Made by a program: the position numbers and the translations under genes
In this document: positions 8,081-58,160 of the stretch, piece after piece
How the letters are laid out: each line of letters opens with the position of its first letter
Position numbering within the stretch: position 1 is the stretch's first letter
The notes under the pieces: model-generated
Told to the model about the DNA's origin: nothing
Database searches by the model: none
The model's input: the letters and a program-made list of their open reading frames with translations, nothing else
Assembly: GCA_021325635.1 (NCBI GenBank)
Contig: JAJPGV010000018.1
Coordinates: 94,412 to 158,411 of the forward strand
Reading direction: 5' to 3'
Source: Chloroflexota bacterium
GTDB taxonomy: Bacteria > Chloroflexota > JAJPGV01
Length of the DNA: 64,000 nt

Positions 8081-8566
8081 TTACAGGATGATGCTCACAG
8101 AGCCGTACGGGCTAATCGACTCGAGGTCGATCTGGGCCCTGCGGTAGCGGATCTTCCACCCGTCCTTGCGTCGCAACCTGTACTCGTAGCGGCCCATGAT
8201 CGGCTCGATCTGGCCGTTCCGCAGGCGGCACACCAGGAACGACGCGGTAGCGCGCGCCTCGTCCGGCGTGAGATCGAGGACGCGCACGTTGGTGACAAAG
8301 CGGCGCGTCCGCGGCCGGGGGGCCTCACGGTAAGCGAAGCCGCTCGTCAGCCGTTCCACCCTCCCGCGCAGACGGGCTATGTCATCGTCAATGAGCCCCA
8401 GGACCTGGCCCGGCTGGCCGTCGGGCAGGGTGGGCGACGGCACCACGTACTGCGCATCCTCGGTGAACAGCTCGAGCCACTCGTCCAGCCGCCACTCATC
8501 CAGCAGGGCGGCCTCCTCCGTCAGGAAGTCCTCGATCTCCAGCCGAGTGGCAGCGTCCACGCTCAC
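8081..8566 (-). CDS. ring-hydroxylating dioxygenase beta (small) subunit, SnoaL-like fold
   Basis: 161 aa, immediately upstream of and co-oriented with the alpha subunit. Shows the typical beta-subunit pattern (DEWRLDEWLELFTEDAQY). Confidence 0.7.
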   Translation of the reverse strand: MSVDAATRLEIEDFLTEEAALLDEWRLDEWLELFTEDAQYVVPSPTLPDGQPGQVLGLIDDDIARLRGRVERLTSGFAYREAPRPRTRRFVTNVRVLDLTPDEARATASFLVCRLRNGQIEPIMGRYEYRLRRKDGWKIRYRRAQIDLESISPYGSVSIIL

Positions 8567-8638
8567 GGGCGCGAGTCTATCACCCCCTCCCTCTCTGCCG
8601 GCCGCCCCCTCGCCGGTCCGGCCAAGGGGGCCGTCGCG

Positions 8639-9121
8639 TCAGGCGGGCCTGATCGCGGTCCGCTCAGCGGCCAGCCTGCGCCATAACGTGAGCAGGTGCG
8701 CCAGCGCGGCGGCGATGAGCGCCAGCTCGAGGATCAGCGCCACCGTCCCGAGCCCGCGCGGATTGGGCTGGTGGAAGCTGTTCCAACCGGCCAGCGTTGC
8801 CAGCGTCACCGCGATGACCAGGAGATCGACGATGGCGCGCACGATTGGCCGGGCTCGCAGGGTCACAAGGAAGAGCGCGACCAGGACCAGGTAGGCGATG
8901 AAGTTGAGCACGAAAGCCTGCTCCAGGCCGATGCCGCCCGGCAGGCGCGGAATCGCTCCGCCGGGGGGCGGCCCAGGCGGCGCAGCGCTGGATCCTCTTG
9001 GCCGGGCGCTGGGGGGTGGCCCTCCGAACAGCACCGCGCGCAGCACCAGGTGCAGCGTCCCGGCCGCCAGAGCCAGCGCAGCCACAACGGCCGAGAGCAG
9101 CGCCGCCATCATTCGCCCCAT
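8639..9121 (-). CDS. hypothetical membrane protein (Pro-rich N-terminal region, 3 predicted TM helices)
   Basis: 160 aa with hydrophobic helices. It competes with overlapping ORFs in other frames. Confidence 0.35.
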   Translation of the reverse strand: MGRMMAALLSAVVAALALAAGTLHLVLRAVLFGGPPPSARPRGSSAAPPGPPPGGAIPRLPGGIGLEQAFVLNFIAYLVLVALFLVTLRARPIVRAIVDLLVIAVTLATLAGWNSFHQPNPRGLGTVALILELALIAAALAHLLTLWRRLAAERTAIRPA

Positions 9122-9174
9122 GCGCTGCTCGTACTCCTAGCTCCTCGGCCAGCCGCAGGTTCTGTTCCGCGCCC

Positions 9175-9660
9175 TCAGTCGTCGCGCTCGCCGCTGAGGT
9201 GGCTGACCAGCGCCTCGCTGATGCCGCGCAGCTGGGCCACCTGCTGTTTTGTGAGCTGGTCGAAGAGGTGCGAGCGCACACCCTCTACGTGTCCGTGGGC
9301 CGCCTTCTCCAGCACCCCGAAGCCTTCGTCGGTAAGGACCGCGAATGCCCCGCGGCGGTCGCTCGGACACTCTTCACGCCGGACCCAGCCCATCTGCTCC
9401 AGGCGGGCAATGGCGTGGGACAGGCGGCTGCGGGAGGACAGCGATCGCTCCGCCAGGTCGCTCATGCGCATCCTACGGTCGGGCGCCTCGGATAGCCGTA
9501 CCAGGATCTCGTAGTAGCCGTGCGGCATGCCCGCGTCGCACTGCAGCTCGCGATCGAGCCGGTCCGCGAGCAGCTGAATGGCGGCCAGGAAGGATCGCCA
9601 GGTGCGCTGCTCCTCCTCATCCAGCCATCGCGTCTGTCTCACGGCTCCACTATAGCCCAT
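9175..9660 (-). CDS. MarR-family transcriptional regulator
   Basis: Winged-helix MarR pattern (SDLAERSLSSRSRLSHAIARLEQMGWVRRE...DRRG). The chosen ATG at 9660 gives ~161 aa. Divergent from the YceI–pirin pair. Confidence 0.8.
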   Translation of the reverse strand: MGYSGAVRQTRWLDEEEQRTWRSFLAAIQLLADRLDRELQCDAGMPHGYYEILVRLSEAPDRRMRMSDLAERSLSSRSRLSHAIARLEQMGWVRREECPSDRRGAFAVLTDEGFGVLEKAAHGHVEGVRSHLFDQLTKQQVAQLRGISEALVSHLSGERDD

Positions 9661-22859: not shown

Positions 22860-23182
22860 ACCGGTCGAATCCCCTTCTTCGGGCGTCCTGACGCGCCGTC
22901 GAATGCTGTCCGAGCTCTTTGCCCTTCGTACTGCCGGCACGGTAAAGCCGGCATAAAGGAGCTGTAATGCGGCCATGAACGCGGGTTCCATCGCGGTATC
23001 CCAGGCGGCCTGCTGCTCGCGATGGGCTGTAACGCGGCTGAAGGAAGCGCTTGGACGCTTGGGCAGCCGCGTCGCGGCGGGCGCAACTGCTACAGTGTTA
23101 CCCAATGTATCGCTACCGTCGACGTTGATCTGAGCTTCGTCTCCGTCTAGCGCCACGGCTGGCGCACTGGCTGCTGCCGGTC

Positions 23183-26071: not shown

Positions 26072-26317
26072 GCATAGTCGTAATTAGGCACTTGCGCCCA
26101 GTTTGTTTCCATTACGTTTCGACTTATTGACTTTGCCCAATAGGCGTCCGTAGACTGCGATCAGGCCGCCGGAACCGGTAGCGGGTTCTCGGAGCGGTTT
26201 CGCAGCAATGGGGCTGGCGCGCGAGGGTGCGGTCACTCTTGGGCCGCCGCCCATTCGATGGGGCTGTTTCCCTTGTGGCCGCCTGTCTTCCGCCAGCGGA
26301 TAAGGAGTTGGGACGGC

Positions 26318-27760
26318 ATGCCACGCACATGGATCGAGCACTGGAATCCCGAGGACGAAGGGTTTTGGGAGGCGACGGGCAAAGCGATTGCCCGGCGGAA
26401 CTTGATCTTCTCGATCTTCGCCGAATTCCTGGGCTTCGCCGTTTGGCAGATCTTCAGCGTCGTGGCGGTGAACCTACCGAACGCCGGCTTCACGTTCTCC
26501 GTCCCGCAGCTGTTCCTGCTTGCTTCGCTGCCTGGGCTCGTGGGGGCTACCATGCGCTTCCCCTACACGGTGGCCGTGCCTAAGTTCGGCGGTCGCAACT
26601 GGACTATCGTCAGCGCCCTGCTGCTGCTCGTTCCCACCTCGCTGGTGGGCGTCCTGGTCCAGCACCCCAGCACTCCCTTCTGGGCGTTTGCCATCGCGGC
26701 AGCCAGCGCTGGCTTCGGCGGTGGCAACTTCGCCTCCAGCATGGCCAACATCAGCTTCTTCTATCCCGACAAGCACAAGGGCCTGGCCCTCGGATTGAAC
26801 GCCGGTGGCGGCAACCTGGGCGTCAGCGTGGTGCAGTTCGCGATCCCGTTTGCCATCACCGTGAGCCTGTTTGGGCCCTTGGCCGGCGCCCCCGAGACGC
26901 TGATCAAGAACGGCGCTGCCGCCGGCCAGTTGTGGCTGCAGAACGCCGGCTTCTTCTGGATCCCGCTCATTCTGCTCGCCGTCATCTGCGCCTGGCTGTT
27001 CATGGATAACCTGTCGGTCAGCCGAGCCAGACTGGCCGACCAAGCCACCATCCTCAAGAGCAGGCACACCTACCTGCTGTCGTGGCTGTACATCGGCACC
27101 TTCGGCTCGTTCATCGGTTACAGCGGCGCCTTTCCGCTGCTCATCAAGACGCAGTTCCCCGGCGTCAACCCGCTGCAGCTTGCCTTCCTGGGGCCTCTGG
27201 TTGGCTCGCTCATACGACCCGTGGGCGGCTGGCTGTCGGATCGCCTGGGTGGCACGTACGTCACGCTGTGGAACTACGGCATCATGATCGTGGCTGTCGC
27301 CGGCGTCATCGCTTCGCTGAGCGTCCACAACTTCGGCAGCTTCTTCGCCTGCTTCATGCTGCTGTTCGCCACAGCCGGGCTGGGCAACGGCTCGACCTTC
27401 CGCATGATCCCATCGATCTTCCGGAGCATGCATCTCGCGCGGGCGGAGCGCACCGGACAGGACCGAGCCCTCGCGCTCAAGGAAGCGGGCAAAGAGACAG
27501 CTGCGTCACTGGGTTTCGCGGGCGCCGTCGGCGCTTACGGCGGGTTCCTCGTGCCAAACAGCTACAGCACCTCGATCGCGGCCACCGGCGGCGTCCAGGC
27601 AGCCCTGTGGGGCTTCATCGGCTTCTACGTCACCTGCATCTTCATCACCTGGGCGGTGTACCTCAGGCCGGAGATGGGGCGGCGCCGAACGGCGGCGGCT
27701 CAACCTGGGGTCATGGCAGCTGGCGACATGGCTGTCCCGGAAGCGGAGGCCGTAGCCTAG
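26318..27760 (+). CDS. narK: nitrate/nitrite transporter, MFS NNP family
   Basis: NNP signature regions (GFAVWQIF..., AAASAGFGGGNFASSMANISFFYP, GLNAGGGNLG). AAGGAG RBS before the ATG at 26318. Confidence 0.85.
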   Translation: MPRTWIEHWNPEDEGFWEATGKAIARRNLIFSIFAEFLGFAVWQIFSVVAVNLPNAGFTFSVPQLFLLASLPGLVGATMRFPYTVAVPKFGGRNWTIVSALLLLVPTSLVGVLVQHPSTPFWAFAIAAASAGFGGGNFASSMANISFFYPDKHKGLALGLNAGGGNLGVSVVQFAIPFAITVSLFGPLAGAPETLIKNGAAAGQLWLQNAGFFWIPLILLAVICAWLFMDNLSVSRARLADQATILKSRHTYLLSWLYIGTFGSFIGYSGAFPLLIKTQFPGVNPLQLAFLGPLVGSLIRPVGGWLSDRLGGTYVTLWNYGIMIVAVAGVIASLSVHNFGSFFACFMLLFATAGLGNGSTFRMIPSIFRSMHLARAERTGQDRALALKEAGKETAASLGFAGAVGAYGGFLVPNSYSTSIAATGGVQAALWGFIGFYVTCIFITWAVYLRPEMGRRRTAAAQPGVMAAGDMAVPEAEAVA

Positions 27761-29878
27761 GTGCAGGCGCTCCTGGAACAGCCGGCCGGGGTTGGTGTGG
27801 CGACCCACTGCCCGTACTGCGCCCTGCAGTGCGGCATGGTCCTCCGCCCCGAAGGCGGTCGCCTGGCGGTGACGGGCCGAGCCGATTTCCCGGTGAATCG
27901 CGGCGGGCTGTGCCTCAAGGGCTGGACCTCGACGGAAACAGTGAACCACCCCGACCGCCTTCGGGCGCCGCTTGCGCGAGACGCCGCGGGGCGGCTGGTG
28001 GAGGTGAGTTGGGACGTCGCGCTGCAGCGCATAGCCGGCGCCTTGGCGGGCATACAACAACGTCACGGGCATGCCGCGGTGGGTGTGCTGGGCGGTGGGT
28101 CGCTGACCAATGAGACCGCCTACCTGCTCGGCAAATTCGCCCGGGTGGCGCTGCGGACGCCCAACATCGACTACAACGGCCGGTTCTGCATGTCCTGCGC
28201 AGCCGCCGGGCAGATCCAGGCGTTCGGCCTCGATCGGGGCCTGCCGTTCCCGATCGAAGACCTGGCATCGGCCGACGTCATCCTGCTGGCCGGCAGCAAC
28301 CTGGCGGAAACGATGCCCCCGGTCATGCGCCACCTCGAGGCGCAGCGGGCAGGCGGCGGAAAGCTCGTTGTGGCGGACCCGCGCGCCTCGCGCACCAGCC
28401 AGGCCGCGTCGATCCACCTGCAGCTGCTGCCGGGCAGTGACGTTGCGCTGGCCAATGGACTGCTGCACGCCTGCATCCAGCAAGGCCTGGTGGATCGCGA
28501 ATATGTTCGGGAGCGAACCACCGGCTTCGAGGCAGCGCGCGCGGCCGTGGCCGCCTACTGGCCGGCTCGGGTGGAGCGGTTGAGCGGCATTCCGGCGTCC
28601 CAGCTGGCCGAGGTGGCGGCGCTCCTGGGCAGCGCGCGGCGGGCCATCATCCTGACGGGTCGCGGCACCGAGCAGCACAGCCACGGGGTGGATTGCGTGC
28701 TGGCCTGGATCAACCTGGCACTGGCGCTGGGATTGCCCGGCCGGCTGGGCAGCGGCTTTGGCCCGTTGACCGGCCAGGGCAACGGCCAGGGTGGGCGCGA
28801 GCACGGGCAAAAGGCCGACCAGCTACCCGGCTACCGCAAGATCGACGACCCTGACGCTCGGCGCCACGTAGCGGCGGTATGGGGCGTCGAGGAGTCTGAC
28901 CTTCCTGGCCCCGGCCTCTCGGCCTACGAGCTGCTGGACAGCCTCGGGCAGGAGAAGGGCGTGCGGGGGCTGCTGGTGATGGCCACCAATCCGGCAGTTT
29001 CGGCGCCACGAGCCTTGCACGTCATCGACCGGCTGCGACAGCTCGACGTGCTGATCGTCGCCGACTTCTTCCTGTCCGAGACGGCCAAGCTGGCGGACGT
29101 CGTCCTGCCCGCGGCACAGTGGGCCGAGGACGGCGGCACGACCACCAATCTCGAAGGCCGAGTCATCCTGCGGCGAGCGGTCGCTCCGCTTGCCGGAGAT
29201 GCGCGCCCCGACTGGCGCATCCTGTGCGACCTTGCTCGGCTGCTGGGTGCAAGCGCGAACTTCCGGTTCGAGGGCCAGGGGGCGATCTTCGCCGAGCTGC
29301 GGCGAGCCAGCGCCGGCGGACCGGCCGACTACAGCGGCATCACCTACGAGCGCCTGGCTCGCGAAGACGGGGTGTTCTGGCCCTGCCCATCCGGCGATCA
29401 TCCGGGCAGTCCCCGGCTGTTCGCCGAGCGCTTCCCCATGCCGGACGGGCGTGCTCGTTTCCACGCGGTGAAGTACCGGCCGCCAGCCGAGGAAGCGGAC
29501 GCTCGATATCCCGTGATCGTCACCACCGGCCGAGTGCTGAGCCAGTACCAATCGGGCACGCAAACGCGGCGGGTGGCCGAGCTGGTTCGCCAAGCGCCTG
29601 AGCCGCTGGTCGAGATGCATCCATCCCTGGCCGCTCGCTTCGGGCTGCACGATGGCCAGATGGTGCGACTCCGATCTCGTCGCGGCAGCATCGCCCTGAA
29701 AGCACGGGTAACGAACAGTATTCGGCCCGACACGGTGTTCGTGCCGTTCCATTGGGGCGGCCAGCAGGCCGCCAACAACCTGACCAACCCGGCGCTCGAT
29801 CCGGTGAGCCGTATGCCCGAGTTCAAGGTGTGCGCGGCAGCTATCGAGCCCATCAGCACAGGAGGAGAGCTTGACTAA
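27761..29878 (+). CDS. nasA: assimilatory nitrate reductase catalytic subunit (molybdopterin oxidoreductase)
   Basis: N-terminal [4Fe-4S] motif CPYCALQCGM, a MopB domain and a C-terminal molybdopterin-binding barrel. The GTG start abuts the narK stop. Confidence 0.85.
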   Translation: MQALLEQPAGVGVATHCPYCALQCGMVLRPEGGRLAVTGRADFPVNRGGLCLKGWTSTETVNHPDRLRAPLARDAAGRLVEVSWDVALQRIAGALAGIQQRHGHAAVGVLGGGSLTNETAYLLGKFARVALRTPNIDYNGRFCMSCAAAGQIQAFGLDRGLPFPIEDLASADVILLAGSNLAETMPPVMRHLEAQRAGGGKLVVADPRASRTSQAASIHLQLLPGSDVALANGLLHACIQQGLVDREYVRERTTGFEAARAAVAAYWPARVERLSGIPASQLAEVAALLGSARRAIILTGRGTEQHSHGVDCVLAWINLALALGLPGRLGSGFGPLTGQGNGQGGREHGQKADQLPGYRKIDDPDARRHVAAVWGVEESDLPGPGLSAYELLDSLGQEKGVRGLLVMATNPAVSAPRALHVIDRLRQLDVLIVADFFLSETAKLADVVLPAAQWAEDGGTTTNLEGRVILRRAVAPLAGDARPDWRILCDLARLLGASANFRFEGQGAIFAELRRASAGGPADYSGITYERLAREDGVFWPCPSGDHPGSPRLFAERFPMPDGRARFHAVKYRPPAEEADARYPVIVTTGRVLSQYQSGTQTRRVAELVRQAPEPLVEMHPSLAARFGLHDGQMVRLRSRRGSIALKARVTNSIRPDTVFVPFHWGGQQAANNLTNPALDPVSRMPEFKVCAAAIEPISTGGELD

Positions 29879-32339
29879 GCAGCGACTTGTCGTCGTCGGC
29901 AACGGCATGGCCGGCGCCCGGACCGTAGAGGAGATCGTCGAACGCGGCGGCATGGAGCGCTACGACGTGACCATCTTCGGGGAGGAGCCGTACGGCAACT
30001 ACAACCGCATCCTCCTGTCGGAGGTGCTGAGCGGCAGCCACGATCCACAGGCGATTTTCATCAACGCCCTGGATTGGTACGCCGAGCGCGGCATCACCTT
30101 GCACGCCGGCGTCCCCGCCGACAACATCGATCGCGCCGATCGGGTGGTGCGCGGAGGGCTGGTGCATGAACCCTATGACGTCTTGATCCTGGCCACCGGC
30201 AGCCGCCCGCTGGTGCCGCGTCTGGACGGCCTGCACCGGGCCGACGGCAAGTGGAAGCAGGGCGTATTTGTGTTTCGCAGCCTGGATGATTGCAGCCGGA
30301 TCGCCGGCTACGCCAAGGGCCGCGCCCGAGCGGCGGTCATCGGCGGCGGACTCCTGGGACTCGAAGCTGCCCGTGGGCTGCTGACGCACCTGCCGGAGGT
30401 GCACGTGATCCAGCGCGAGAGCACGATCATGAACCTCCAGCTCGACTCGCGGGCTGGCCGGATGCTGCAGACAACGCTGCAGGACATGGGCATTCAGGTC
30501 CACACCGGCACCGCCACCACGGCCATGCTTGGCCGCGAGAAGGTGAGCGGGCTGCAATTCGAAAGCGGCGAAATCCTCGACTGCGACATGGTGGTCATGG
30601 CCTGCGGCATCTTGCCGAACGTGCAGCTGGCGCGCGACGCCGGATTGGCCGTCGAACGCGGCATCGTGGTGGATGACCAGATGCGCTGCGTCGACGATCC
30701 GAACGTCTACGCCGTCGGCGAGTGCGCCCAGCATCGCGGGCAGGTCTACGGCCTCGTGGCGCCGTTATGGGAGCAGGCCCGGGTGCTGGCCGAGCACCTC
30801 AGCGAAGCCAACCCGGCCGCCACGTATGAGGGCTCCCGCCTGTATACGCGGCTCAAGGTCATGGGCGTCGATCTGGCGACGATGGGCGCTAAGGACTCGG
30901 ATGACCCGGAGGACGAGGTCATCCTGTACAGCGAGCCCTCGCGCGGCGTGTACCAAAAGCTCATTGTTCGCGACAACCAGCTCGCCGGCGCCATCCTGCT
31001 GGGCGACACGGCCGCGGCGTCGTCGCTGGTGCAGCTGTTCGACCGCGGCACGCCGCTGCCCCAGCGGCGCGCCGATCTGCTGTTCCCGAGCGGGGCGACG
31101 CCTGCGGTCACCGCGCCCGAGCAGCTGCCCGACGACGTCCAGGTATGCAACTGCAATGGCGTTTCCAAGGGGACCATCGTGGCCAGCGTGAAGTCCGGCA
31201 AGAGGAGCCTGAGCGCGGTGTGCGCCGCCACGCGCGCCGGCACCGGCTGCGGCTCCTGCAAGGACCTTGTGCGGCGGATTACGGAGTGGGCCTCTGATGG
31301 GCAGCTGGAGGAGGACGTCACGGCCCATTACTACGTGCCGGGCGTGCCGCTGGCGAAACCCGAGCTGATTGCCGCTATCAAGGAGCTGGGCCTCAGGAGC
31401 GTCTCGGCGGTGTTCGGCGCCCTGACCGGCGGGCTCGAGGACGCCGGCAGCAAGACGGGCCTGGCCTCCCTGCTCAAGACGATTTGGGGCGCCGAGTACG
31501 AGGACGAGCGGGACGCTCGATTCATCAACGATCGGGTGCATGCCAACGTCCAGAAGGACTCGACCTTCAGCGTCGTGCCGCGCATCTATGGAGGCGTGAC
31601 CAGCTCGGCGCAGCTGCGCCGCATCGCGGACGTAGCCGACAAGTACAACGTCCGTATGGTCAAGATCACCGGCGGCCAGCGCATCGACCTGCTGGGCATC
31701 GCCAAAGAGGACCTGCCCGGGGCGTGGCAGGACCTGGACATGCCATCAGGCCATGCCTACACCAAGGCTTTCCGCACCTGCAAGACGTGTGTCGGTACCG
31801 ACTTCTGCCGCTATGGCCTGGGCGACAGCACGGCGCTGGGGATTGCCATCGAGAAACGCTTTCAGGGTATTGAGGCGCCGCACAAGATGAAGCTGGCAGC
31901 CACCGGCTGCCCGCGTAACTGCGCCGAGGCGACGACCAAGGACCTCGGCGCGATTGCCATCGAGGGGGGCAGGTGGGAGCTCTACATTGGCGGCGCCGCC
32001 GGATCAACGGTGCGCAAGGGCGACCTCCTGTGCACGGTCGATTCCCACGACGACGTACTGCGCTTCATGGGCCGCTTCATGCAGTACTACCGTGAGCAGG
32101 CGAAGTATCTCGAGCGCACGTATTCCTTTGTGGAGCGCATCGGGATTGAGCGGCTGCGACAGGCTCTGGTTGAAGACCGCGAATCGATCTGCCAGCGCCT
32201 CGATGCCGAGATCGAGGCGGCCGTCCGAGCCTACGAGGACCCCTGGCGTGAAGGTCGCGCTCCGCTGCACCGGCATCAGTTCGTATCCACGCTGCCCGCC
32301 GGCGACGCCGGCGAAAGGCTGGCGGCGGTGTCCGCCTGA
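29871..32339 (+). CDS. nirB: NAD(P)H-dependent nitrite reductase large subunit
   Basis: FAD/NAD Rossmann (VVVGNGMAGAR), a BFD-like [2Fe-2S] region (CNCNGVSKGT...C..C) and a siroheme/[4Fe-4S] domain. The TTG start overlaps the nasA stop; AGGAGGA RBS. Confidence 0.9.
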   Translation: MTKQRLVVVGNGMAGARTVEEIVERGGMERYDVTIFGEEPYGNYNRILLSEVLSGSHDPQAIFINALDWYAERGITLHAGVPADNIDRADRVVRGGLVHEPYDVLILATGSRPLVPRLDGLHRADGKWKQGVFVFRSLDDCSRIAGYAKGRARAAVIGGGLLGLEAARGLLTHLPEVHVIQRESTIMNLQLDSRAGRMLQTTLQDMGIQVHTGTATTAMLGREKVSGLQFESGEILDCDMVVMACGILPNVQLARDAGLAVERGIVVDDQMRCVDDPNVYAVGECAQHRGQVYGLVAPLWEQARVLAEHLSEANPAATYEGSRLYTRLKVMGVDLATMGAKDSDDPEDEVILYSEPSRGVYQKLIVRDNQLAGAILLGDTAAASSLVQLFDRGTPLPQRRADLLFPSGATPAVTAPEQLPDDVQVCNCNGVSKGTIVASVKSGKRSLSAVCAATRAGTGCGSCKDLVRRITEWASDGQLEEDVTAHYYVPGVPLAKPELIAAIKELGLRSVSAVFGALTGGLEDAGSKTGLASLLKTIWGAEYEDERDARFINDRVHANVQKDSTFSVVPRIYGGVTSSAQLRRIADVADKYNVRMVKITGGQRIDLLGIAKEDLPGAWQDLDMPSGHAYTKAFRTCKTCVGTDFCRYGLGDSTALGIAIEKRFQGIEAPHKMKLAATGCPRNCAEATTKDLGAIAIEGGRWELYIGGAAGSTVRKGDLLCTVDSHDDVLRFMGRFMQYYREQAKYLERTYSFVERIGIERLRQALVEDRESICQRLDAEIEAAVRAYEDPWREGRAPLHRHQFVSTLPAGDAGERLAAVSA

Positions 32340-32340
32340 C

Positions 32341-32703
32341 ATGATGAGAGTGCTGCCCAACCAGCGGCAACCCGCCGCCGTTCGCTCCGAGGGCGCGTTC
32401 AACCTCGGCCCGCCGGGTCAAATCCCCATTGGTGAAGCACGGGAATTCGACCTTCCTGGCCAGCGCGTCGCGGTGTATCACGCTAGGGATGGCCGGCTGT
32501 ATGCTACCCAAGCCAGCTGCCCGCACCTGGGGGGCAAGCTGGCCGACGGCGTGGTGGGCGGAGCCGTGGTGATCTGTCCGTTGCACGGCTACCGATACGA
32601 CCTGCGCGATGGTCGTGTGCTGAATGGCGCATGCGACAGGCTGCGGACGTTTCCGGTGTGGCTGTCGACGGGCGGCGACGTGATGGTGCAGCTGGAGGTA
32701 TGA
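32341..32703 (+). CDS. nirD: nitrite reductase small subunit (Rieske-like)
   Basis: 120 aa with CPHLGGKL...CPLHGYRYDL. Starts 2 nt after the nirB stop. Confidence 0.8.
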   Translation: MMRVLPNQRQPAAVRSEGAFNLGPPGQIPIGEAREFDLPGQRVAVYHARDGRLYATQASCPHLGGKLADGVVGGAVVICPLHGYRYDLRDGRVLNGACDRLRTFPVWLSTGGDVMVQLEV

Positions 32704-33497
32704 GCCCTTGGCCCGCGGGCCGCTTCCTGCTGTTGACTGCGCCGTCCCCAGCCAGCGAGGTGGGTTTGCGACTGGCCGACGGATTGCGGCAGATTGGCGC
32801 TCAAATCGACGTCGCGCCGTTCGACCGCGAGGATGCTGTCCGGTTCGCGCTCGATCGGCAGTCGCCGGACGCCGTGCTGCTGGAGCTGACGGCTGCTTCA
32901 GGAGTGCTGCCGGCTCAGCACGTCCGGCACATCGAATGGACGGAGTGCGGGACACGGGCTCATCCGATCCTGGCGCTGATCCACGAGCGACACCTGGCCA
33001 TGCCCGAACTGGCCACGCTGGTCGACGATTTCCTCCTTCCGCCGTACCGGCCTTCGGAGGTGGCTCTGCGCCTGACCCTCATCAGACAGCGCCGAGGCGC
33101 CGCGGCGGGACGAGTCGTGCACGTCGGCGGGCTGGAAATCGATCTCGCTCAGCGCCGGGTCAGCGTTCCGGGCTGCGACGAGCCCGTGCTCCTCACCCCG
33201 CGTGAGTACGAGCTGCTGGCCTTCCTGGCGGCGCACAGAGGCATGACCTTCACTCGCAAGATGCTCCTGGCACAGGTCTGGGGTCAGGACTACGAAGGCG
33301 GACCGCGAACCGTGGACATTCACGTTCGACGCCTGCGAGCCAAGATCCCTTCCGGCATGGGCGACTGCATCGAGACGGTTCGCTACGTCGGCTACCGGCT
33401 GGTGGAGACTCCTGGCCCGATCGTGCTTGCAGACGGCACTTCGGCACCTGCCGAGTCTCGCGTTGGCGAGGCCGGGCCTCGTTTAATCCAGCCTTAG
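32700..33497 (+). CDS. OmpR/PhoB-type winged-helix regulator with a degenerate receiver domain (orphan, GlnR-like)
   Basis: C-terminal trans_reg_C pattern (LTPREYELLAFLAAHRGMTFTRKMLLAQVWG...VDIHVRRLRAKI...VRYVGYRL). The N-terminal receiver-like region lacks a clean acidic pocket. The ATG overlaps the nirD stop (ATGA). Confidence 0.6.
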   Translation: MSPWPAGRFLLLTAPSPASEVGLRLADGLRQIGAQIDVAPFDREDAVRFALDRQSPDAVLLELTAASGVLPAQHVRHIEWTECGTRAHPILALIHERHLAMPELATLVDDFLLPPYRPSEVALRLTLIRQRRGAAAGRVVHVGGLEIDLAQRRVSVPGCDEPVLLTPREYELLAFLAAHRGMTFTRKMLLAQVWGQDYEGGPRTVDIHVRRLRAKIPSGMGDCIETVRYVGYRLVETPGPIVLADGTSAPAESRVGEAGPRLIQP

Positions 33498-33873
33498 CGA
33501 GGCTGACTGTGGCCGTGGAGCTGCGCGGCCACCTGAGCGTGGTCCTGACCGCGGGTGGCGGGCTGACGGTGTGCAGCACGACCATGCGGGTGGAGGCCTT
33601 GACGCCACGCCGCTGGCCTGCCGGCACGAAGCCAATGCTGCCCGGACGCAGCGGCTCCTCCTGATTTTCGCTGACAAGCGCACCTTCGCCTTCGATGACC
33701 ACCAGCGCCATGTCAACGCTCGGCTCGTGAGCCGGAATGGACTGACCAGCTTCCAAACAGACCAGCACCACCTTCATCCGCTCACTCTGAGCCAGGCCAA
33801 TGGGGTTGAAGTGCTCGGTTTGGAAAGCGGCGAGGTCGGCGTAGTGACCGATGAAAGGCCTAGCGTCGTTCAT
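33250..33873 (-). CDS. cupin-domain protein (C-terminal portion doubtful)
   Basis: The N-terminal ~115 aa show a cupin_2 pattern (VVLVCLEAGQSIPAHEP...ALVVIEGEG). The ORF then continues ~90 aa of R-rich low complexity, antisense to the regulator gene. Confidence 0.45.
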   Translation of the reverse strand: MNDARPFIGHYADLAAFQTEHFNPIGLAQSERMKVVLVCLEAGQSIPAHEPSVDMALVVIEGEGALVSENQEEPLRPGSIGFVPAGQRRGVKASTRMVVLHTVSPPPAVRTTLRWPRSSTATVSLAKAGLNEARPRQRETRQVPKCRLQARSGQESPPAGSRRSEPSRCSRPCRKGSWLAGVERECPRFAVRLRSPDPRPVPGASCE

Positions 33874-34011
33874 GAGTGAATCCCTCGCGTGAGTTGATGT
33901 GCCGCTGGGCGAGCAGCCTCTGCCGGCTGAGGGGCCTGCCCAATTACCTCCCGATTGGCAGCTCAGGCGTATCGCCCACAAGCCACGTTAGCGCTGGAAG
34001 ACGTCGAGCTT

Positions 34012-34055
34012 CAGGGACTTGGGTTCCTTTCCGGTAAAAGGAACCCAAGTCCCTG
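34012..34055. promoter_or_regulatory. 19-bp perfect inverted repeat CAGGGACTTGGGTTCCTTT-ccggta-AAAGGAACCCAAGTCCCTG
   Basis: Lies in the divergent region between the cupin gene and the hemerythrin gene, ~100 nt upstream of the hemerythrin ATG. Confidence 0.5.
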
Positions 34056-34154
34056 TGCGTCGTGTCCCGTTGCGGCAGATTAGTGGAAAGAAAAGCGTGG
34101 TGACGACAGCGCCGGCAAAAGCGGCCTGGCCGGCACCGACTCAAGGAGCGATCT

Positions 34155-34781
34155 ATGGAAACCACCAAGACCTTGCAGGCAGAGCACAACGCGGTGCTCC
34201 ACGTCCTCGATCAGCTCGAACATGCGGCCGAAGCCGCGGCGGGCGGCCAGCCGGTGCCGGCCAACGTGTTCGCCGACATCGAAGAGTTTTTCCGCGTGTT
34301 CGTCGATCGCTGCCATCACGGCAAAGAAGAGCTCGTGCTGTTCCCAAAACTCATGCAAACTGGCTTGCCAGCCGCGCTCGAGATGCAGCACGAGGAGGGC
34401 CGCCAGCTTGCCAAGGCCTACGCGTTGGCGGCCGAAAGGTACGTCGCCGGCAGCCGAGCCAGCGCGGTTGCGCTGCAGCGAGCGGCCGCGGACTATGAAG
34501 CGCTGTTGCGCAGCCATATTGATATGGAGAACGCGGGGCTCCTACCAGCCATCGAACGGGACCTGAGTGCGCAGGACCAGGAACTGGCCGACGCGTTCGA
34601 ACAGATCGAAACGGAACGCATCGGCGCCGGCACGCACGAGCGGCTGCACCACATGATCGAAACGCTGGCCGGTCGCATCAGCCCGTTCCTATCCGCTTCT
34701 GGCCCGGTTCGCGTGGACGTCTCCGAACCTGGGCCCCAGGCATCGCTGCTTCCGCACGGCTCGAAAAAGGAACAGTCCTGA
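34155..34781 (+). CDS. hemerythrin HHE cation-binding domain protein
   Basis: H...HxxxE...H...H..D pattern (AEHNAVLHVLDQLEH; FVDRCHHGKEELVLFP; HIDMENAGLLP; HERLHHMIE). Confidence 0.7.
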   Translation: METTKTLQAEHNAVLHVLDQLEHAAEAAAGGQPVPANVFADIEEFFRVFVDRCHHGKEELVLFPKLMQTGLPAALEMQHEEGRQLAKAYALAAERYVAGSRASAVALQRAAADYEALLRSHIDMENAGLLPAIERDLSAQDQELADAFEQIETERIGAGTHERLHHMIETLAGRISPFLSASGPVRVDVSEPGPQASLLPHGSKKEQS

Positions 34782-34952: not shown

Positions 34953-35570
34953 TCAGCGACGCTCGACCGGTTGGCGGATGATCGTTTTCAGTCGTTCTGG
35001 CGTAGCGCGCCGCGGGTCGCCCAGGTAGATTTCGTGATGCTTGCCACGCGGCGCGTAACCGCGCTCCTCGATGAACGCGAGCAGACAGCGAATGGTGGGC
35101 GGCTCCGCCGCGTAGGGGCCGATGTGGAGGACCTGCGCCGAGAGACCCTCAGCCCAGCGCTGCAGTCGCAGCTCCCGTGCGGTCGGAAGGCTCTTCTTGC
35201 CGGCCACGTCGGCCGCCCATGCCTCGACCATCTCGGCGGTGACTTCGAATGGCTGCTTGATCATCGCCGTCCACTCCCAGGCTGCCTTGTCGTCCATGTC
35301 CAAGCCAGCCATACCCCCCATCCACCACAGTCCCTCGAGGGGTGGAACCTTGTAGTCCGGCCCACCGCTTCGTTTCAGCGCGAATTTCAGTGCGTAAGAG
35401 ACCCCGTACAGCGCCTGGATGGCTTCCTGAAACCGGGGGGATACGTTGGGATCGCCATGTCCGTCGATCATCAGGAAATTGAGCTCGGGAACGTCGATCA
35501 GCTCTGGGCTTGGTCCGGCCCGGTACAGCCGGTCGACCTCGATCCCCCTTTCGGTCGTGATTGCTGTCAT
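34953..35570 (-). CDS. GyrI-like small-molecule-binding domain protein
   Basis: 205 aa with a GyrI-like effector-binding pattern (HIGPY...). Confidence 0.6.
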   Translation of the reverse strand: MTAITTERGIEVDRLYRAGPSPELIDVPELNFLMIDGHGDPNVSPRFQEAIQALYGVSYALKFALKRSGGPDYKVPPLEGLWWMGGMAGLDMDDKAAWEWTAMIKQPFEVTAEMVEAWAADVAGKKSLPTARELRLQRWAEGLSAQVLHIGPYAAEPPTIRCLLAFIEERGYAPRGKHHEIYLGDPRRATPERLKTIIRQPVERR

Positions 35571-35917
35571 GCTGGCACCCCCCGCCCTTCAGGCTCCGCG
35601 GCATTGGCCCCGTGTTTCACCGTTCCGATGCACGTAGCCGAGCAGCCTTGGGCAAGGCGCGCCAGGTTGACGCACCTGTTCACGCCCACGGCCTTCGGCG
35701 TGGGCGTGAACAGGTGCGAGTCCTCGGGGGCCCAGTAGGCGCTCCGCAGACGCTGCGGGGTCGGCGGACGAAACTCGTAGGGGATCCGGCCCCACAACTG
35801 CCCGTGCCAGGTTCGCCGTCCAGCAGGCTTTCGCAGCTCTTGCGCGACCGCAAGTCCAACCAGCGCCGCGCCAACCACCGACACCAGCCCACGAAGCTTC
35901 TTGGCTTTCGTTCTCAT
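35567..35917 (-). CDS. small membrane-anchored hypothetical protein
   Basis: Start chosen at MRTKAKKLRG (GGAGGT RBS). One TM helix. Overlaps the GyrI-like gene's start by 4 nt. Confidence 0.35.
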   Translation of the reverse strand: MRTKAKKLRGLVSVVGAALVGLAVAQELRKPAGRRTWHGQLWGRIPYEFRPPTPQRLRSAYWAPEDSHLFTPTPKAVGVNRCVNLARLAQGCSATCIGTVKHGANAAEPEGRGVPA

Positions 35918-47593: not shown

Positions 47594-47686
47594 GGGGAGA
47601 TGGTCGAGCGGTCCAAGACGCGGCTCCGGAAATGCCGTGGGTGGGTTCTGTCCCGCCCCGAGGGTTCGAATCCCTCTCTCCCCGCC
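47594..47686 (+). tRNA. tRNA-Ser (GGA), class II; CCA not encoded
   Basis: Acceptor GGGGAGA/TCTCCCC, U8-G9, D-arm GTC-GAGCGGTCCAA-GAC, anticodon loop CCGGAAA, long variable arm, T-arm GAGGG-TTCGAAT-CCCTC. Position 33 is C and the 31-39 pair is U·U. Confidence 0.55.
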
Positions 47687-47689
47687 TTC

Positions 47690-47777
47690 CGAGAGGTGGC
47701 AGAGTGGCTTATTGCACCGCCTTCGAACAGCGGCAGGGGCGCAGCGCTCCTCATGGGTTCAAATCCCATCCTCTCGG
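47690..47777 (+). tRNA. tRNA-Ser (CGA), class II; C1-G72, CCA not encoded
   Basis: Acceptor CGAGAGG/CCTCTCG, D-arm GCA-GAGTGGCTTATT-TGC, anticodon arm CCGCC-TTCGAAC-AGCGG (C·A at 31-39), T-arm ATGGG-TTCAAAT-CCCAT. Confidence 0.55.
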
Positions 47778-47784
47778 CTTGCAT

Positions 47785-47860
47785 GGTCTCGTGGTGTAGT
47801 GGCCAGCACACGACCCTGTCAAGGTCGGGGGGCCGGGTTCGATTCCCGTCGAGACCGCCA
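47785..47860 (+). tRNA. tRNA-Asp (GTC), CCA encoded
   Basis: Acceptor GGTCTCG/CGAGACC, D-stem GTGT/GCAC, anticodon arm CGACC-CTGTCAA-GGTCG, T-loop TTCGATT. Confidence 0.8.
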
Positions 47861-53486: not shown

Positions 53487-54338
53487 ATGAAAATTGCCCT
53501 GGCGCAGATTGCGCCGAAGCTCGGAGATCTGCCCAGCAACCTGGCGCTGCACCTGGAATGGATCCGGCAGGCCAAGCAGTCGGGCTGTGACCTCGTGGTC
53601 TTCCCGGAGCTGTCCTTGACTGGCTATTTCCTCGAGGAGCTGGCCTACCACGTGTGCCTGCGGCTGGATTCCCCCGAGCTCGGCCAGCTGTGCGAGGCTG
53701 CCCGCGGGACGTCGGCGGTGGTCAGCTTCGTGGAGGAGACGAGCGACTTCCACTACTTCATCTCGGCGGCCTTCATCGAGGACGGGGCCATAAAGCACGT
53801 CCATCGCAAGGTCTACCTGCCGACGTACGGCATGTTCACCGACCAGCGCTACTTCGCCGAGGGAGACCGTATCAGGGCGTTCGACGCCGGCTTTGGACGT
53901 GTGGGCCTGCTCATTTGCGAGGATTTCTGGCACAACTCGGCGGTCAGCATCCTGGCGGCCGACGGGGCGAATTACCTGATCAACGTCAGCAGCAGTCCCG
54001 GGCGTGGGGTGGTGACCGGCGGCCGAACGCTTGGCAGCTCCGACGCGGTCGAGATGCTGAACCGCATGTACGCCCAGTTCTTCACCAGCTTCGTCTTCTT
54101 CTGCAACCGTGTCGGCTACGAAGATGGCATCAACTTCTGGGGGGGCTCGGAGGTCATTGGGCCGGATGGTGAGTGCCTGGCCAAGGCGCCCTACTTCGAC
54201 GAACAGCTGCTGTGCGTCGAGATCGATCCCTCAGCCCTGCGCCGCGTGCGTATCAATCTTCCGTTGCTGCGCGACGAGAAGCTGGAGCTGACGCTGCGTG
54301 AGTACCAGCGCATCCTGGAGCAGCGTTTTGGCCGCTAA
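53487..54338 (+). CDS. carbon-nitrogen hydrolase (nitrilase superfamily), likely the glutaminase partner of NadE
   Basis: Catalytic E-K-C pattern ([11 protein letters not shown]...HRKVYLP...LLICEDFWH). Overlaps nadE by ~40 nt. Confidence 0.8.
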
Positions 54339-55221
54339 GGCGGGGCCGCCATCCAGCAAGGACGGGGCTGGGCGGCCCGCGGACAGCGCTTCGCGCCTGC
54401 CCGATCGCCTGGCCATCAACACGGCTACGACTGAGCGGCTGCTCACGGGTTTCATCGCCAATGAGGTGCGTAAGGTGGGCTTTCAACGGGTGGTGGTTGG
54501 CCTGTCCGGCGGGATCGATTCCGCGCTGTCGGCCTTCCTGGCGGCCAGGGCACTGGGCCCCGAGAACGTCACCGCCATCATGATGCCCTACAGGACCAGC
54601 AGTCCCGAGAGCCTGGCGGACGCCCAGTCGGTGGTCGATCATCTGGCTGTCGGCAGCAAGCTCATCGAGATTACGCCGATGGCCGACGCATTCATCGCCC
54701 AGAGCAACGCGGATACCAACAAGCGCAAAGGCAACGTGATGGCCCGCACCCGAATGGTCGTGCTGTACGACCAGTCGGAGGCGTTGAACGCCCTGGTGCT
54801 TGGCACCAGTAACAAGACCGAGCTGCTGCTGGGCTACGGCACGCTCCATGGGGACATGGCCTCGGCCATCAACCCACTGGGGGATCTCTACAAGACCCAG
54901 GTTTGGGCATTGAGCGAAGCGCTGGGTGTGCCCGACAGCATCGTGAACAAGCCGCCAACGGCCGACCTATGGGTTGGCCAGACCGACGAGGGCGAGCTTG
55001 GCTTCAGCTACCGGGCGGTGGATGAGGTCCTGTTTCAGCTGGTGGACGAGCGCTACTCAGAGGACGAGCTCGTCGAGCGCGGTTACGATGCGACCTTCGT
55101 GCGCAAGGTAGCGCGGCTGATCATGATCTCCCAGTTCAAACGAGCGCTGCCGGTTATCGCCAAGATCTCGGCGCGAACGATTACCCGCGAGTTCCGCTAT
55201 CCGCGGGATTGGGGTCGCTGA
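54298..55221 (+). CDS. nadE: NAD+ synthetase (stand-alone NadE domain)
   Basis: PP-loop SGGIDS and a NadE fold. Start is GTG 54298 or TTG 54328. Confidence 0.85.
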
Positions 55222-55256
55222 GCGGCGATACGCCGCTCAGCGACCCCAATCCCGCG

Positions 55257-58160
55257 TTACGCTGCCGCCATCTCGAATAGCCGTCGCGGCTGACGCCGCA
55301 CCCAGCGCTCGAGATCGCCGATCGCCATCGGCCGGCTGATGTGATAGCCCTGGGCGCTGTCACAGCCCAGGCGCCGCAGCAGATCGAGCGTCTCTTCGTC
55401 CTCCACGCCTTCGGCAATGACATATGCCCCCAACGCATGGCCAAGGTCGATGGTCGCCTGCACGATGGCCCGGTCCTTGGCGCTGCTCGCCATTCTCTGC
55501 ACGAAGCTGCGGTCGATTTTCAGCTCGTCCACAGCCAGCTGCCGAAGGTAGCTGAGCGACGAGTAGCCGGTTCCGAAATCGTCGATGGAGATGCGGGCGC
55601 CCAGCGTGCGCAGCCCGGCCAGTGTCGCCTGGGCTATCGCCGGGTTGCTCATCATAGCGCTTTCGGTGATCTCCACCACCAGCTGGCCTTTGGCCGGCTT
55701 CCAGCGCTCCATGAGCTGCCCCATGTAGCTGGTCAGGAGCGGATCGTGCAGATCCAGCATGGAGAGATTGACTGCCACCGGCAGCTCCACGCCGCGCACG
55801 CTGAGCGTCTCTCGATGGCGGAAGGCCGCATCCAGCACCCAGCGGCTCAGCTGCCGGATCGAGCCGGTTTGCTCGGCCAGCGGAATGAACTGATCGGGAG
55901 GGACGATGCCCAGCTCAGGGTGGCGCCAGCGGACCAGCGCTTCCATGCCATCGGGCTGGCCCGACGCCAGGTCCAGCCGGGGTTGGAATTCGAGCATCAG
56001 CTGATCCAGGGCGACCGCCTGGCCGAGGTCGGACGCCAGCATCAGGCGTCCCGCGGTTTCGGAATCCATTTTGGGGTCGTAGCGCACGTAGCCTTCGTGG
56101 GCCTGCTTGGCGGCATACATCGCCACGTCCGCGTGTCGCAGCAGCGTCTCGGCGTCGCCGCCATGTTCCGGGCACAGGGCGATGCCGATGCTGCCGTCGA
56201 TCCGGATTGGACGGTCCTGCAGCACGATTGGCGCGCTCAGGACCTCGAGCACTTTGGCCGCCACGATCGCGGCCCCCTCCGAGCGTTGGACCGGTGTCAA
56301 CAGGATGGCGAACTCATCTCCCCCCAGCCGGGCAACCGTATCGGATTTGCGCAGGACCGACTGCAGCCGCCGGCCAATCTCCTGGAGCAGGCGGTCGCCC
56401 GCCGCGTGGCCGAGCGTGTCGTTGACTTCCTTGAATCTGTCGAGATCGAGCAGCAGCAGCGCCGTGCGGCGATCCCCGCGCTGGGCGGACAGAATGGCCT
56501 GGCTGAGACGGTCCTGGAGGAGGCGTCTGTTCGGAAGTCCGGTCAGGCTGTCGTATAACGCCTGCTCCGCCAGGGTGGCCTGGGCATGGGCGTTTTCCAG
56601 CATGACCGCCGCGTAGCTGGCCAGCGCTTCGGCCAGCCTGATTTGCGACGGTGTTGGGGAGACGTCCTCCTGCCAGCCGATTCTGATGGCCCCCAACGGC
56701 TCCGAGCTGCCGATCATTGGGGTGGCCAGCACCGTTCCCTTCGTTTGGTTGATAGACCTTCGGCCCTCGAAGGCATTCCTGTCCAGCCGCTCGATGAGCA
56801 CAGTACGCCGCTCCGCGACTGCTTTGGAAGTGGCTCCGATCCCACTGCCTGGGGCCTTGGGCAGCCACTTGGCTGCGCGACCGCTGCGGGATTCGTACCA
56901 CCAGATGCCGCGATCCTCTCGAATCAGCCGGATCCCGAAATACTGGGCTTTGAGGAGCTGCGAGCCCCGTTCGCAGATCAAGCTGATGGCGCGGTTGAGG
57001 TCGTTGCCGGCGGCGCAATCGCGGACCAGATTGGCCAGCGCTTCTGCCTCGGCCCGTTTCGCTTCGGATTCCACGCGGGATTGGGCATTGTCCAGCACCG
57101 CTGCTCCGTAGGCCGCTAGGGCTTCGGCCAGCCTGACCTGGGCTTGGCTGGGAATGACTTCCGTGCGCCACCCCAGCACGAGGGCTCCCAGGACACGGCC
57201 GAGGAAGGTGAGCGGCGTGGCCAGCTCTACCAGTCCGCCCTCGTTCGCCCTCACCGAGGTCGGATCGATGGCGAGCCCTTGGTCTATAGCGTCCTGGGTG
57301 CGTGTGATGAACGTGCGTCCGGTCTGCACGGCTTTGGTGGCGCTTCCCAGGTGGCGTGCCCGCCGAGGCCTGGTCCAGGCATCGGAACGGTTGCCCCACA
57401 TGCCGCGCCAGACCACGTTGCCTGCTTCGTCGACGATGCGCACGCCGGCGTAATCCGCGCCGACGTGCTTGGTCGCTCGCTCGCAGATGAGATTGATGAT
57501 CTTGTCAGGACAGGGTGAGGCCGCACCCTCGCGCACGAGCTCAGCCATCGCTTCGGCTTGCACGCGCCGCTGCTCTGAGTCGGCCTGCAGTCTCGATGCT
57601 TCCAGCAAGGGCGCGACCTGGGCAGCGAGCAGCTCCAGGAGACGCACGTGCTGTGGCTTGAACGCTCGATGGCTGAAGCTCAGCGCTACCAGCGCTCCGA
57701 GGGGCCGGTCGCACATGCGGGGGGGGACTGCCAGCGCGCTTTGCAGGCCCTGCAAATGAGCGCGGCGCCGCGCGCCTGGCCAGTTGGGATAGTCCGGCAC
57801 GACGACCGGGCGGCCGGTCTCATAGGCCTGGCCCACCAGGCCTGCGCCCGGTTGGACCTGCAGATCGGCTTCGGCTCGCTTGGGGCCGCTCTCGGCCAGG
57901 AGCCTCAGCACGCCTGCTTCCGGGTCTGCCTGATACAGCGCCACGTTGTCGATGGCGAGGAGGTCATGAGCGCTATCCACGACCAGCTGGCCCAGCGCAA
58001 CGGGCTCGAGGATTTCGCCCGCGGCGCTGGCGAAGTTGTGCAGAGCGCTGAGCGCTCGAGCCGGATTTCGCCGCCGCGACTGGGCTTCGCCGGCGGTCTC
58101 GGCCGCGCCGCGCGTTTGAACAACCACCTCAGTACGGCTGCTCGGTTTGTGCTCCATCAT
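55257..58160 (-). CDS. multi-GAF sensor diguanylate cyclase/phosphodiesterase (GGDEF-EAL)
   Basis: 967 aa with tandem GAF domains, the GGDEF motif (RLGGDEFAILL) and an EAL domain (ELKIDRSFV, DDFGTGYSSLSYL). Confidence 0.85.
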   Translation of the reverse strand: MMEHKPSSRTEVVVQTRGAAETAGEAQSRRRNPARALSALHNFASAAGEILEPVALGQLVVDSAHDLLAIDNVALYQADPEAGVLRLLAESGPKRAEADLQVQPGAGLVGQAYETGRPVVVPDYPNWPGARRRAHLQGLQSALAVPPRMCDRPLGALVALSFSHRAFKPQHVRLLELLAAQVAPLLEASRLQADSEQRRVQAEAMAELVREGAASPCPDKIINLICERATKHVGADYAGVRIVDEAGNVVWRGMWGNRSDAWTRPRRARHLGSATKAVQTGRTFITRTQDAIDQGLAIDPTSVRANEGGLVELATPLTFLGRVLGALVLGWRTEVIPSQAQVRLAEALAAYGAAVLDNAQSRVESEAKRAEAEALANLVRDCAAGNDLNRAISLICERGSQLLKAQYFGIRLIREDRGIWWYESRSGRAAKWLPKAPGSGIGATSKAVAERRTVLIERLDRNAFEGRRSINQTKGTVLATPMIGSSEPLGAIRIGWQEDVSPTPSQIRLAEALASYAAVMLENAHAQATLAEQALYDSLTGLPNRRLLQDRLSQAILSAQRGDRRTALLLLDLDRFKEVNDTLGHAAGDRLLQEIGRRLQSVLRKSDTVARLGGDEFAILLTPVQRSEGAAIVAAKVLEVLSAPIVLQDRPIRIDGSIGIALCPEHGGDAETLLRHADVAMYAAKQAHEGYVRYDPKMDSETAGRLMLASDLGQAVALDQLMLEFQPRLDLASGQPDGMEALVRWRHPELGIVPPDQFIPLAEQTGSIRQLSRWVLDAAFRHRETLSVRGVELPVAVNLSMLDLHDPLLTSYMGQLMERWKPAKGQLVVEITESAMMSNPAIAQATLAGLRTLGARISIDDFGTGYSSLSYLRQLAVDELKIDRSFVQRMASSAKDRAIVQATIDLGHALGAYVIAEGVEDEETLDLLRRLGCDSAQGYHISRPMAIGDLERWVRRQPRRLFEMAAA

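Follow-up and report, generated by a model that had tools for sequence, protein, structure and literature searches.

The window, by which we mean the whole 64-kb stretch of DNA analysed here, has a G+C content of 66%, and the best matches of its proteins come from Chloroflexota MAGs. A cupin ORF and a gene for a hemerythrin HHE-domain protein face away from each other across a divergent region of 281 bp, which contains a perfect inverted repeat, CAGGGACTTGGGTTCCTTT-CCGGTA-AAAGGAACCCAAGTCCCTG, the arms of which (34012-34030 and 34037-34055) are complementary at 19 of 19 positions, as a sequence-only reading of this DNA had described (Table 1). The same reading had named an OmpR-like gene ending at 33497 as the nearest regulator, and the closest regulator gene is indeed this one (32631-33497, forward strand); it is OmpR/GlnR-like, the GlnR-like N-terminal domain being a weak match. 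With this gene ends a co-directional nitrate/nitrite assimilation block (26258-33497), made up of an MFS transporter, a molybdopterin nitrate-reductase-like gene, nirB, a Rieske nirD-like gene and the OmpR-type regulator, the end of which lies 515 bp before the palindrome. Further along the window, three tandem tRNA genes are found on the forward strand (47594-47857).

Table 1. Features of the cupin/hemerythrin divergent region, numbered from the first letter of the window; promoter elements are predicted from alignment with relatives.
Feature	Position	Strand	Details
Perfect inverted repeat, whole double-box module	34012-34055		19-bp arms, 6-nt spacer
Left box GGGACTTGGGTTCC	34014-34027	-	5-N4-5 dyad; exact reverse complement of right box
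Right box GGAACCCAAGTCCC	34040-34053	+	5-N4-5 dyad, towards hemerythrin promoter
Inferred -10 CAGATT, hemerythrin promoter	34076-34081	+	22 nt after right box
Inferred -10 TAACGT, leftward promoter	33985-33990	-	23 nt beyond left box
Putative weak -35-like CTGTGC (CTGAnn in relatives)	34053-34058	+	17-nt spacer to -10
Hemerythrin HHE-domain gene, rightward target	34155-34781	+	PF01814, 64 bits; AAGGAG ribosome-binding site at 34143
Cupin ORF, leftward target in this genome	33510-33873	-	Cupin_2 27.3 bits, cut-off 27.2; ATG at 33873

The cupin ORF itself has some unusual properties. Its codon signal is coding-like only to about position 33510, and the reading frame stays open to 33250; the extended form (33250-33873, reverse strand) overlaps the convergent OmpR/GlnR-like gene by about 250 nt, and the ORF was left uncalled by the Logan gene caller. 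Its stop codon may have been lost, or the gene may be decaying.

That the palindrome is far beyond chance, which had also been claimed, is borne out by shuffling: the 19-mer of the arm found no match in 100 dinucleotide shuffles, and the longest perfect stem across 20 mononucleotide shuffles of the window was 12 bp. The reported lack of a U-tract holds as well, no T-run being present 3' of the palindrome on either strand, and a terminator scan of 33400-34400 returned no sites. A scan for sigma-70 consensus sequences found no promoter, which is what would be expected if the promoters here are activator-dependent, and a small ORF spanning the palindrome (33955-34083) has no family match. The palindrome is not unique in kind within the window, in which two further perfect hairpins stand out, at 35671-35718 (20-bp arms) and 55202-55256 (26-bp arms). 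Over 8114 bp, which include two of these three palindromes, the window is matched without any difference by an independently made Logan assembly of run SRR5581483 (L001).

Relatives of the locus were collected as contigs encoding hemerythrin orthologues, 57-75% identical to that of the window. Blocks homologous to the palindrome are present in eight other lineages (L025, L016-18, L019-21, L022-24, L026-27, L030, L031 and L033), always in the divergent region at the head of the hemerythrin operon. The orthologous hemerythrin genes sit in NnrS/DUF2249/COX1-like clusters, and on the opposite side of the block there is usually a DUF2249/COX1-like/FeS-assembly/NnrS operon, a slot which in the window is taken by the cupin ORF. 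Homologues of Crp/Fnr, NnrS, DUF2249 and COX1-like proteins were all absent from the 64-kb window in tblastn searches, and the window cupin has no significant similarity to the cupin-domain protein encoded by the first gene of the relatives' rightward operon.

The block is the sole invariant stretch of the intergenic alignment, with 83% column identity versus 47% overall, and what has been kept in it is not the pairing of the arms. Arm pairing amounts to 17/20 in L025, 21/24 in L016 and 13/19 in L030 (by hand count); 13 of the 19 pairs never vary, and four depart by mispairs only, being broken in most relatives. The covariation score was 0.014 compared with 0.013 in shuffles, 413 of 500 of which scored as high. 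Because mispairs are common, changes are non-compensatory and covariation is lacking, constraint, as judged from the alignment, acts on the sequence and not on the pairing, and by the same measure the palindrome is a real, conserved cis-regulatory element. The preference of the sequence-only reading for a dimeric-regulator operator over a terminator thus fits the conservation and the lack of covariation; the part of it that does not stand is the architecture of a single 19-bp dyad.

Several features of the relatives' clusters may be recorded at this point. In L025 a protein of about 447 aa (8220-9563, reverse strand) bears a faint likeness to heme-copper oxidase subunit I (COX1 35 bits; ccoN 34 bits) and is possibly a very divergent NO-reductase-like protein. 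This COX1-like protein also occurs in L016, L026, L030 and L033, always with DUF2249 and the FeS-assembly protein, and NnrS accompanies it wherever the locus extends far enough. The DUF2249 ORF of L022 (2129-2554; also in L023 and L024) forms a fusion with a piece similar to the N-terminal part of the COX1-like protein, and in these three contigs the remainder of the leftward operon is missing and both boxes are kept. The hemerythrin domain of L033 (13964-15058, 364 aa) has a fused N-terminal GNAT acetyltransferase domain; in other lineages a separate GNAT-like ORF lies upstream of the hemerythrin gene.

Within each arm the conserved unit is a shorter dyad of 14 bp, GGAAC-N4-GTYCC (5-N4-5), and two such boxes per element are seen across the nine lineages, L031 having the right box only. 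It had been proposed that TTGGGTTCCTTT is the half-site of one 19-bp dyad; the alignment instead reveals two 14-bp dyads, one for each divergent promoter. The right box reads GGAACC-NA-AGTCCC, or a close variant of this, in all nine lineages, and the left box of five relatives is GGAACCTGGGTTCC, a perfect self-symmetric dyad. The internal symmetry of GGAACCTGGGTTCC is not required by the overall palindrome, which points to the box, and not the hairpin, as the conserved unit. In L030 the left box, GGAACCTGAGTCCC, repeats the right box in direct instead of mirrored orientation, and the spacing of the boxes from centre to centre varies among lineages from 25 to 28 bp, being 26 bp in the window. 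Since each box is itself a dyad, two of them in tandem automatically form a long quasi-palindrome.

The boxes have a fixed relationship to sequences that resemble -10 elements, such a hexamer beginning 22 nt past each box, on both sides and in every lineage (23 nt on the left side of the window). The leftward hexamers are TAGCGT, TAACGT, TATTGT and TAGTGT, usually followed by GGG, and the rightward ones, of the form CAnAnT, are CAGATT, CAGAGT, CACATT, CACACT, CATATT and CATAGT; the A at position 2 and the T at position 6 are invariant and the other positions vary. Conservation extends past the boxes, which would be explained by a putative weak -35-like element, CTGAnn (on the right arm of the window, CTGTGC), that overlaps either arm at its outer end. 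Transcription is predicted to start at approximately 33978 on the reverse strand and 34088 on the forward strand, in each case about 41.5 bp downstream of the centre of the box. In L030 the DUF2249 ATG follows TAGCGT after 6 nt and the box centre lies 41.5 bp from the A of the ATG, a geometry consistent with a leaderless transcript. FNR/CRP class II promoters have as their standard layout a 14-bp site that ends 22 nt before the -10, with its centre at about -41.5, and the window element has both the dyad format of a class II operator and, on the predicted starts, the -41.5 position. With the palindrome upstream of both putative -10 elements, it is probably untranscribed from these promoters.

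One other box with at most one mismatch was found in the window, at 22976-22989; it was set aside as a further site, as it is inside a 1389-aa ORF and the count is about what chance would give. When full-text literature was searched with the exact box strings, no description of the motif was recovered, the only matches to GGAAC being the -35 elements of ECF sigma factors, and as far as this search for exact strings shows, the variant GGAAC-N4-GTTCC did not appear in earlier work.

Considering which protein may recognise these boxes, the sole transcription-factor gene that recurs in the relatives' loci encodes a Crp/Fnr-family protein of about 220 aa (cNMP_binding and HTH_Crp_2 domains). It adjoins NnrS in L025 and L026 and the FeS-assembly gene of the cluster in L033, and in L016 it is on the same 14,254-nt contig as the element. 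The cluster-associated regulators share at least 64% identity and make up a clade, their next relatives being at 55% or less, and with best NCBIfam scores of 64-89 bits against cut-offs above 200 they are the equivalog of no named family. The association was also found in reverse: at the locus of regulator P0142, which is 71% identical to that of L025, a double box is present and lies, as predicted, between DUF2249 and the rightward operon. The recognition helix, AREVAGR, retains the CRP residues R180, E181 and R185, for which published specificity rules favour a TGTGA-type site and not GGAAC (PMC1274295). No autoregulatory boxes were found upstream of the regulator genes. The OmpR/GlnR-like neighbour was rejected as a candidate, since relatives with the element lack the gene at that position and the site is dyadic.

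An outgroup locus, L028, contains a 44%-identical Crp/Fnr gene that is divergent from its hemerythrin gene. The hemerythrin promoter there has the site TGCGACTTCTGTCACA (7926-7941), a 16-bp TGCGA-N6-TCACA centred 32 bp upstream of TATAGT. To judge by the format and position of this site, L028 has the same class II architecture with a different box. Before the CopD/NnrS operon of L028 a half-matching site (5025-5040) is seen 33 bp upstream of TATCAT.

We propose, with a probability of about 0.65, that the palindrome is a double Crp/Fnr-type operator, in which two 14-bp boxes, set back to back, separate the divergent class II promoters of nitrosative-stress genes. Each box would serve one activator-type promoter, overlapping its poor -35 element, and the candidate ligand is a dimer of the Chloroflexota-specific Crp/Fnr-family regulator. 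This regulator would most likely activate the hemerythrin operon and, in the relatives, also the DUF2249/COX1-like/FeS-assembly/NnrS operon, with nitric oxide, nitrite or low oxygen as the likely signal; by sequence, activation is indistinguishable from repression. The perfect symmetry of the window element would have come about by a template switch during replication, in which the left arm was rewritten as a copy of the right arm, with three bases changed within a 7-nt tract.

The element might instead be a single long operator of 44 bp, bound by one repressor of the Rrf2/NsrR, MerR or TetR type and relieved by NO or redox stress, a reading with which several observations agree: the block forms one uninterrupted dyad that overlaps the -35 region on either side, its symmetry is perfect in two lineages, the window has no Crp/Fnr gene, and in other phyla NsrR typically controls hemerythrin, nnrS and nor genes (PMC1274295). 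We regard it as unlikely, however, given that the distance between the halves varies by 3 bp (25-28), which a rigid complex would tolerate poorly, that the left half of L030 is flipped, and that the left box in five lineages has an internal 14-bp symmetry for which the large dyad has no need; moreover, the Crp/Fnr gene is the only one to recur in the loci, and no Rrf2, MerR or TetR gene does so. Still less probable is a pair of back-to-back promoters of the ECF-sigma type, with the inner GGAACC hexamers as -35 elements. GGAAC is the classical ECF -35 motif, as the literature matches indicate, the inner hexamers face outwards to each operon, and on the right side a conserved TnTCGC block lies about 17 nt downstream. 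The left side, by contrast, has no conservation 16-18 nt after GGAACC and a conserved sigma-70-like TAnnGT 30 nt away, the leftward inner hexamer of L030 is GGGACT with the operon intact, and the outer half-sites, which an ECF -35 would not need, are conserved too.

A transcribed RNA hairpin, whether in the hemerythrin or cupin leader, as a U-less terminator or as a processing site, has in its favour a very stable stem (a 171-nt region around it folds at -73.6 kcal/mol, z = -3.5), the perfect stems of two lineages with one double change between them, and the use by this genome of at least one other long hairpin that lacks a U-tract, located where two genes converge (55202-55256). Even so, we consider it quite improbable: the flanking genes are divergent, so that neither could be terminated by the palindrome; covariation is lacking and most lineages tolerate mispairs; L030 retains the boxes and loses 6 of the 19 pairs; and both conserved -10-like hexamers are outside the arms and point away from them. 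Rfam searches at gathering and permissive thresholds gave only tRNAs and meaningless miRNA-hairpin matches, no family match for the palindrome reaching threshold. The alternative of a hairpin in the hemerythrin leader, which the sequence-only reading had kept in play, is thus unsupported, there being no covariation and the palindrome lying upstream of both putative -10 elements. An interspersed repeat (REP- or MITE-like) or the end of a mobile element appears the most remote of these explanations. An 11-bp core of the stem, ACTTGGGTTCC...GGAACCCAAGT, does recur as hairpins at several loci in other metagenomes, but these all differ from the window's element in their inner stems, and the element has kept its position relative to the same genes in nine lineages. 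The search for further copies that had been advised found a single copy in the 64-kb window, even with three mismatches allowed. Beyond the window, the exact 19-mer had four matches in GTDB species genomes (the source genome not included), all to single arms and in unrelated taxa, which is roughly the number expected by chance (about four), and a gapped scan of JGI metagenomes for the core recovered nine loci, none of them from Chloroflexota and none the source locus.

The hairpins that share this core, of the form ACTTGGGTTCC-SGS-loop-SCS-GGAACCCAAGT, are at L007 6918-6949, L008 797-828, L010 3538-3569 (the same locus as L013) and L014 1007-1038, that is, four distinct loci from one metagenome series, and their apical stems differ by compensatory changes. 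Those of L007 and L014, for which the ORFs were read, are just downstream of genes on what are apparently Betaproteobacteria-type contigs. The four hairpins may belong to a REP-like family of terminators with 11 bp in common with the window stem; we take those of L007 and L014 as an unrelated family or as chance. L010 (3520-3590) and L013 (120-180) cover one locus in two samples, which differ immediately next to the palindrome: the stem of L013 is longer by about ten perfectly paired bases, which may be another palindrome-extending event.

Within the double-operator reading the exactness of the window's symmetry has to be accounted for separately from the boxes. The hemerythrin tree places the window as sister to L025, with L033 at the base. 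The right arm is identical between the window and L025, and the left arm differs from that of L025 at three positions within 7 nt (34013, 34016 and 34019), at which it also differs from four other lineages. Each of these changes produces the complement of the right arm, CTGGAACC becoming CAGGGACT, so that the left arm has changes that are derived, clustered, confined to one arm and complementary to the other, as a template switch would leave them; template switching is known to homogenise the arms of inverted repeats (PMC8604942, PMC8794818). On this phylogeny the 19/19 perfection is lineage-specific and derived, and it is probably a recent, mutational side-effect. L033 also has a perfect palindrome, with 23-bp arms and a 2-nt spacer, which differs from that of the window by a G:C to T:A double change, and by parsimony its perfection appears to have been reached independently. 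The symmetry of L033 could alternatively reflect selection for perfect symmetry or for a hairpin, so that in both lineages either a recurrent process or a favoured symmetry may be at work.

Perfect palindromes of 19-26 bp number three in the 64 kb of the window versus one, the L033 element, in about 112 kb of the relatives' loci. That template switching is unusually active in this lineage, or that the symmetry of the double operator is selected, is an idea we hold as doubtful. Were it true, a palindrome-perfecting process would be rewriting functional sequence, including a conserved operator half-site and part of a conserved protein-coding gene, or, if the symmetry, which has apparently arisen twice (window and L033), is selected, it might for example allow cruciform extrusion to couple the divergent promoters.

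The two other palindromes of the window lie in different contexts. That at 35671-35718 (20-bp arms, 8-nt spacer) is inside a DUF5808 (PF19124) gene (35567-35917, reverse strand), the homologues of which read HVFTDT--AFGVGWSVN where the window reads HLFTPTPKAVGVNRCVN. In its second arm the reverse complement of the HLF codons takes the place of the conserved GWS, at a net gain of 6 nt, so that GVGWS becomes GVNRC, and only when read from the opposite strand does the spacer encode the conserved AFG; from these details it looks like an arm extension and spacer inversion by template switching. The hairpin at 55202-55256 (26-bp arms, 3-nt loop, no U-tract) is located between convergent genes, holding the stop and last codons of an NAD synthase gene (54298-55221, forward strand) and ending one base before the stop of a GAF-GGDEF-EAL gene (55257-58160, reverse strand), and is probably a bidirectional U-less terminator.

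For an uncultured clade of Chloroflexota, these observations provide a testable model that comprises a box sequence, a promoter geometry, a candidate regulator and a regulon. The proposed regulon joins a hemerythrin-like protein, DUF2249, NnrS and a very divergent heme-copper-oxidase-like protein, all of them poorly understood players in the handling of nitric oxide by soil bacteria. The locus is also a natural example of tandem dyad sites forming a quasi-palindrome that replication errors can perfect, and it warns against judging how large an operator is from how far perfect symmetry extends. There is nothing here that a specialist in bacterial transcription would find surprising.

The closest architectural parallel is with the FNR box, TTGAT-N4-ATCAA, which is centred at -41.5 in class II promoters. 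Shared with FNR/CRP class II promoters are the 14-bp 5-N4-5 dyad, the 22 nt from site to -10, the poor -35 overlapped by the site and, in the relatives, a Crp/Fnr-family gene beside the regulated cluster; the differences are that the half-site here is GGAAC and not TTGAT, that binding is predicted, and that two sites are packed 25-28 bp apart for divergent promoters. Boxes of the 5-N4-5 format are also those of NO regulators of the FNR family, namely GTAACnnnnGTTAC for HcpR2, TTGACnnnnGTCAA for HcpR1 and CTTGATnnnnATCAAG for DNR (PMC1274295). The regulon of HcpR2 was predicted by Rodionov et al. 2005 to respond to NO and nitrosative stress (PMC1274295), and its box has the same format as the one described here with one base different per half-site, a nitrosative-stress regulon under an FNR-like factor being proposed here as well. 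The phyla are different, however, hcp is absent from all of the locus lists, so that the HcpR2 arrangement of GTAACnnnnGTTAC upstream of hcp is not seen, and the position of CRP Glu-181 is Pro in HcpR2 and Glu in the clade regulator.

The target genes are shared more fully with the DNR and NnrR regulons and with Thermus, in which the DUF2249 operon drpAB depends on the CRP-like regulator DnrT (PMC6282519): NnrS, heme-copper NOR-like, hemerythrin-like and DUF2249 proteins are common to these systems and the present one, as, on the proposed model, is a CRP-family activator. In contrast, the box sequence is not that of the DNR/NnrR/FNR consensus TTGATnnnnATCAA, from which it departs at three to four of the five half-site positions, and the clade regulator is the equivalog of no named NCBIfam family. 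As for the symmetry of the arms, the Ripley model of template switching at quasi-palindromes describes the same pattern of clustered changes in one arm, each of which restores complementarity, and differs in that the substrate here would be a conserved regulatory site, with the event read from the phylogeny.
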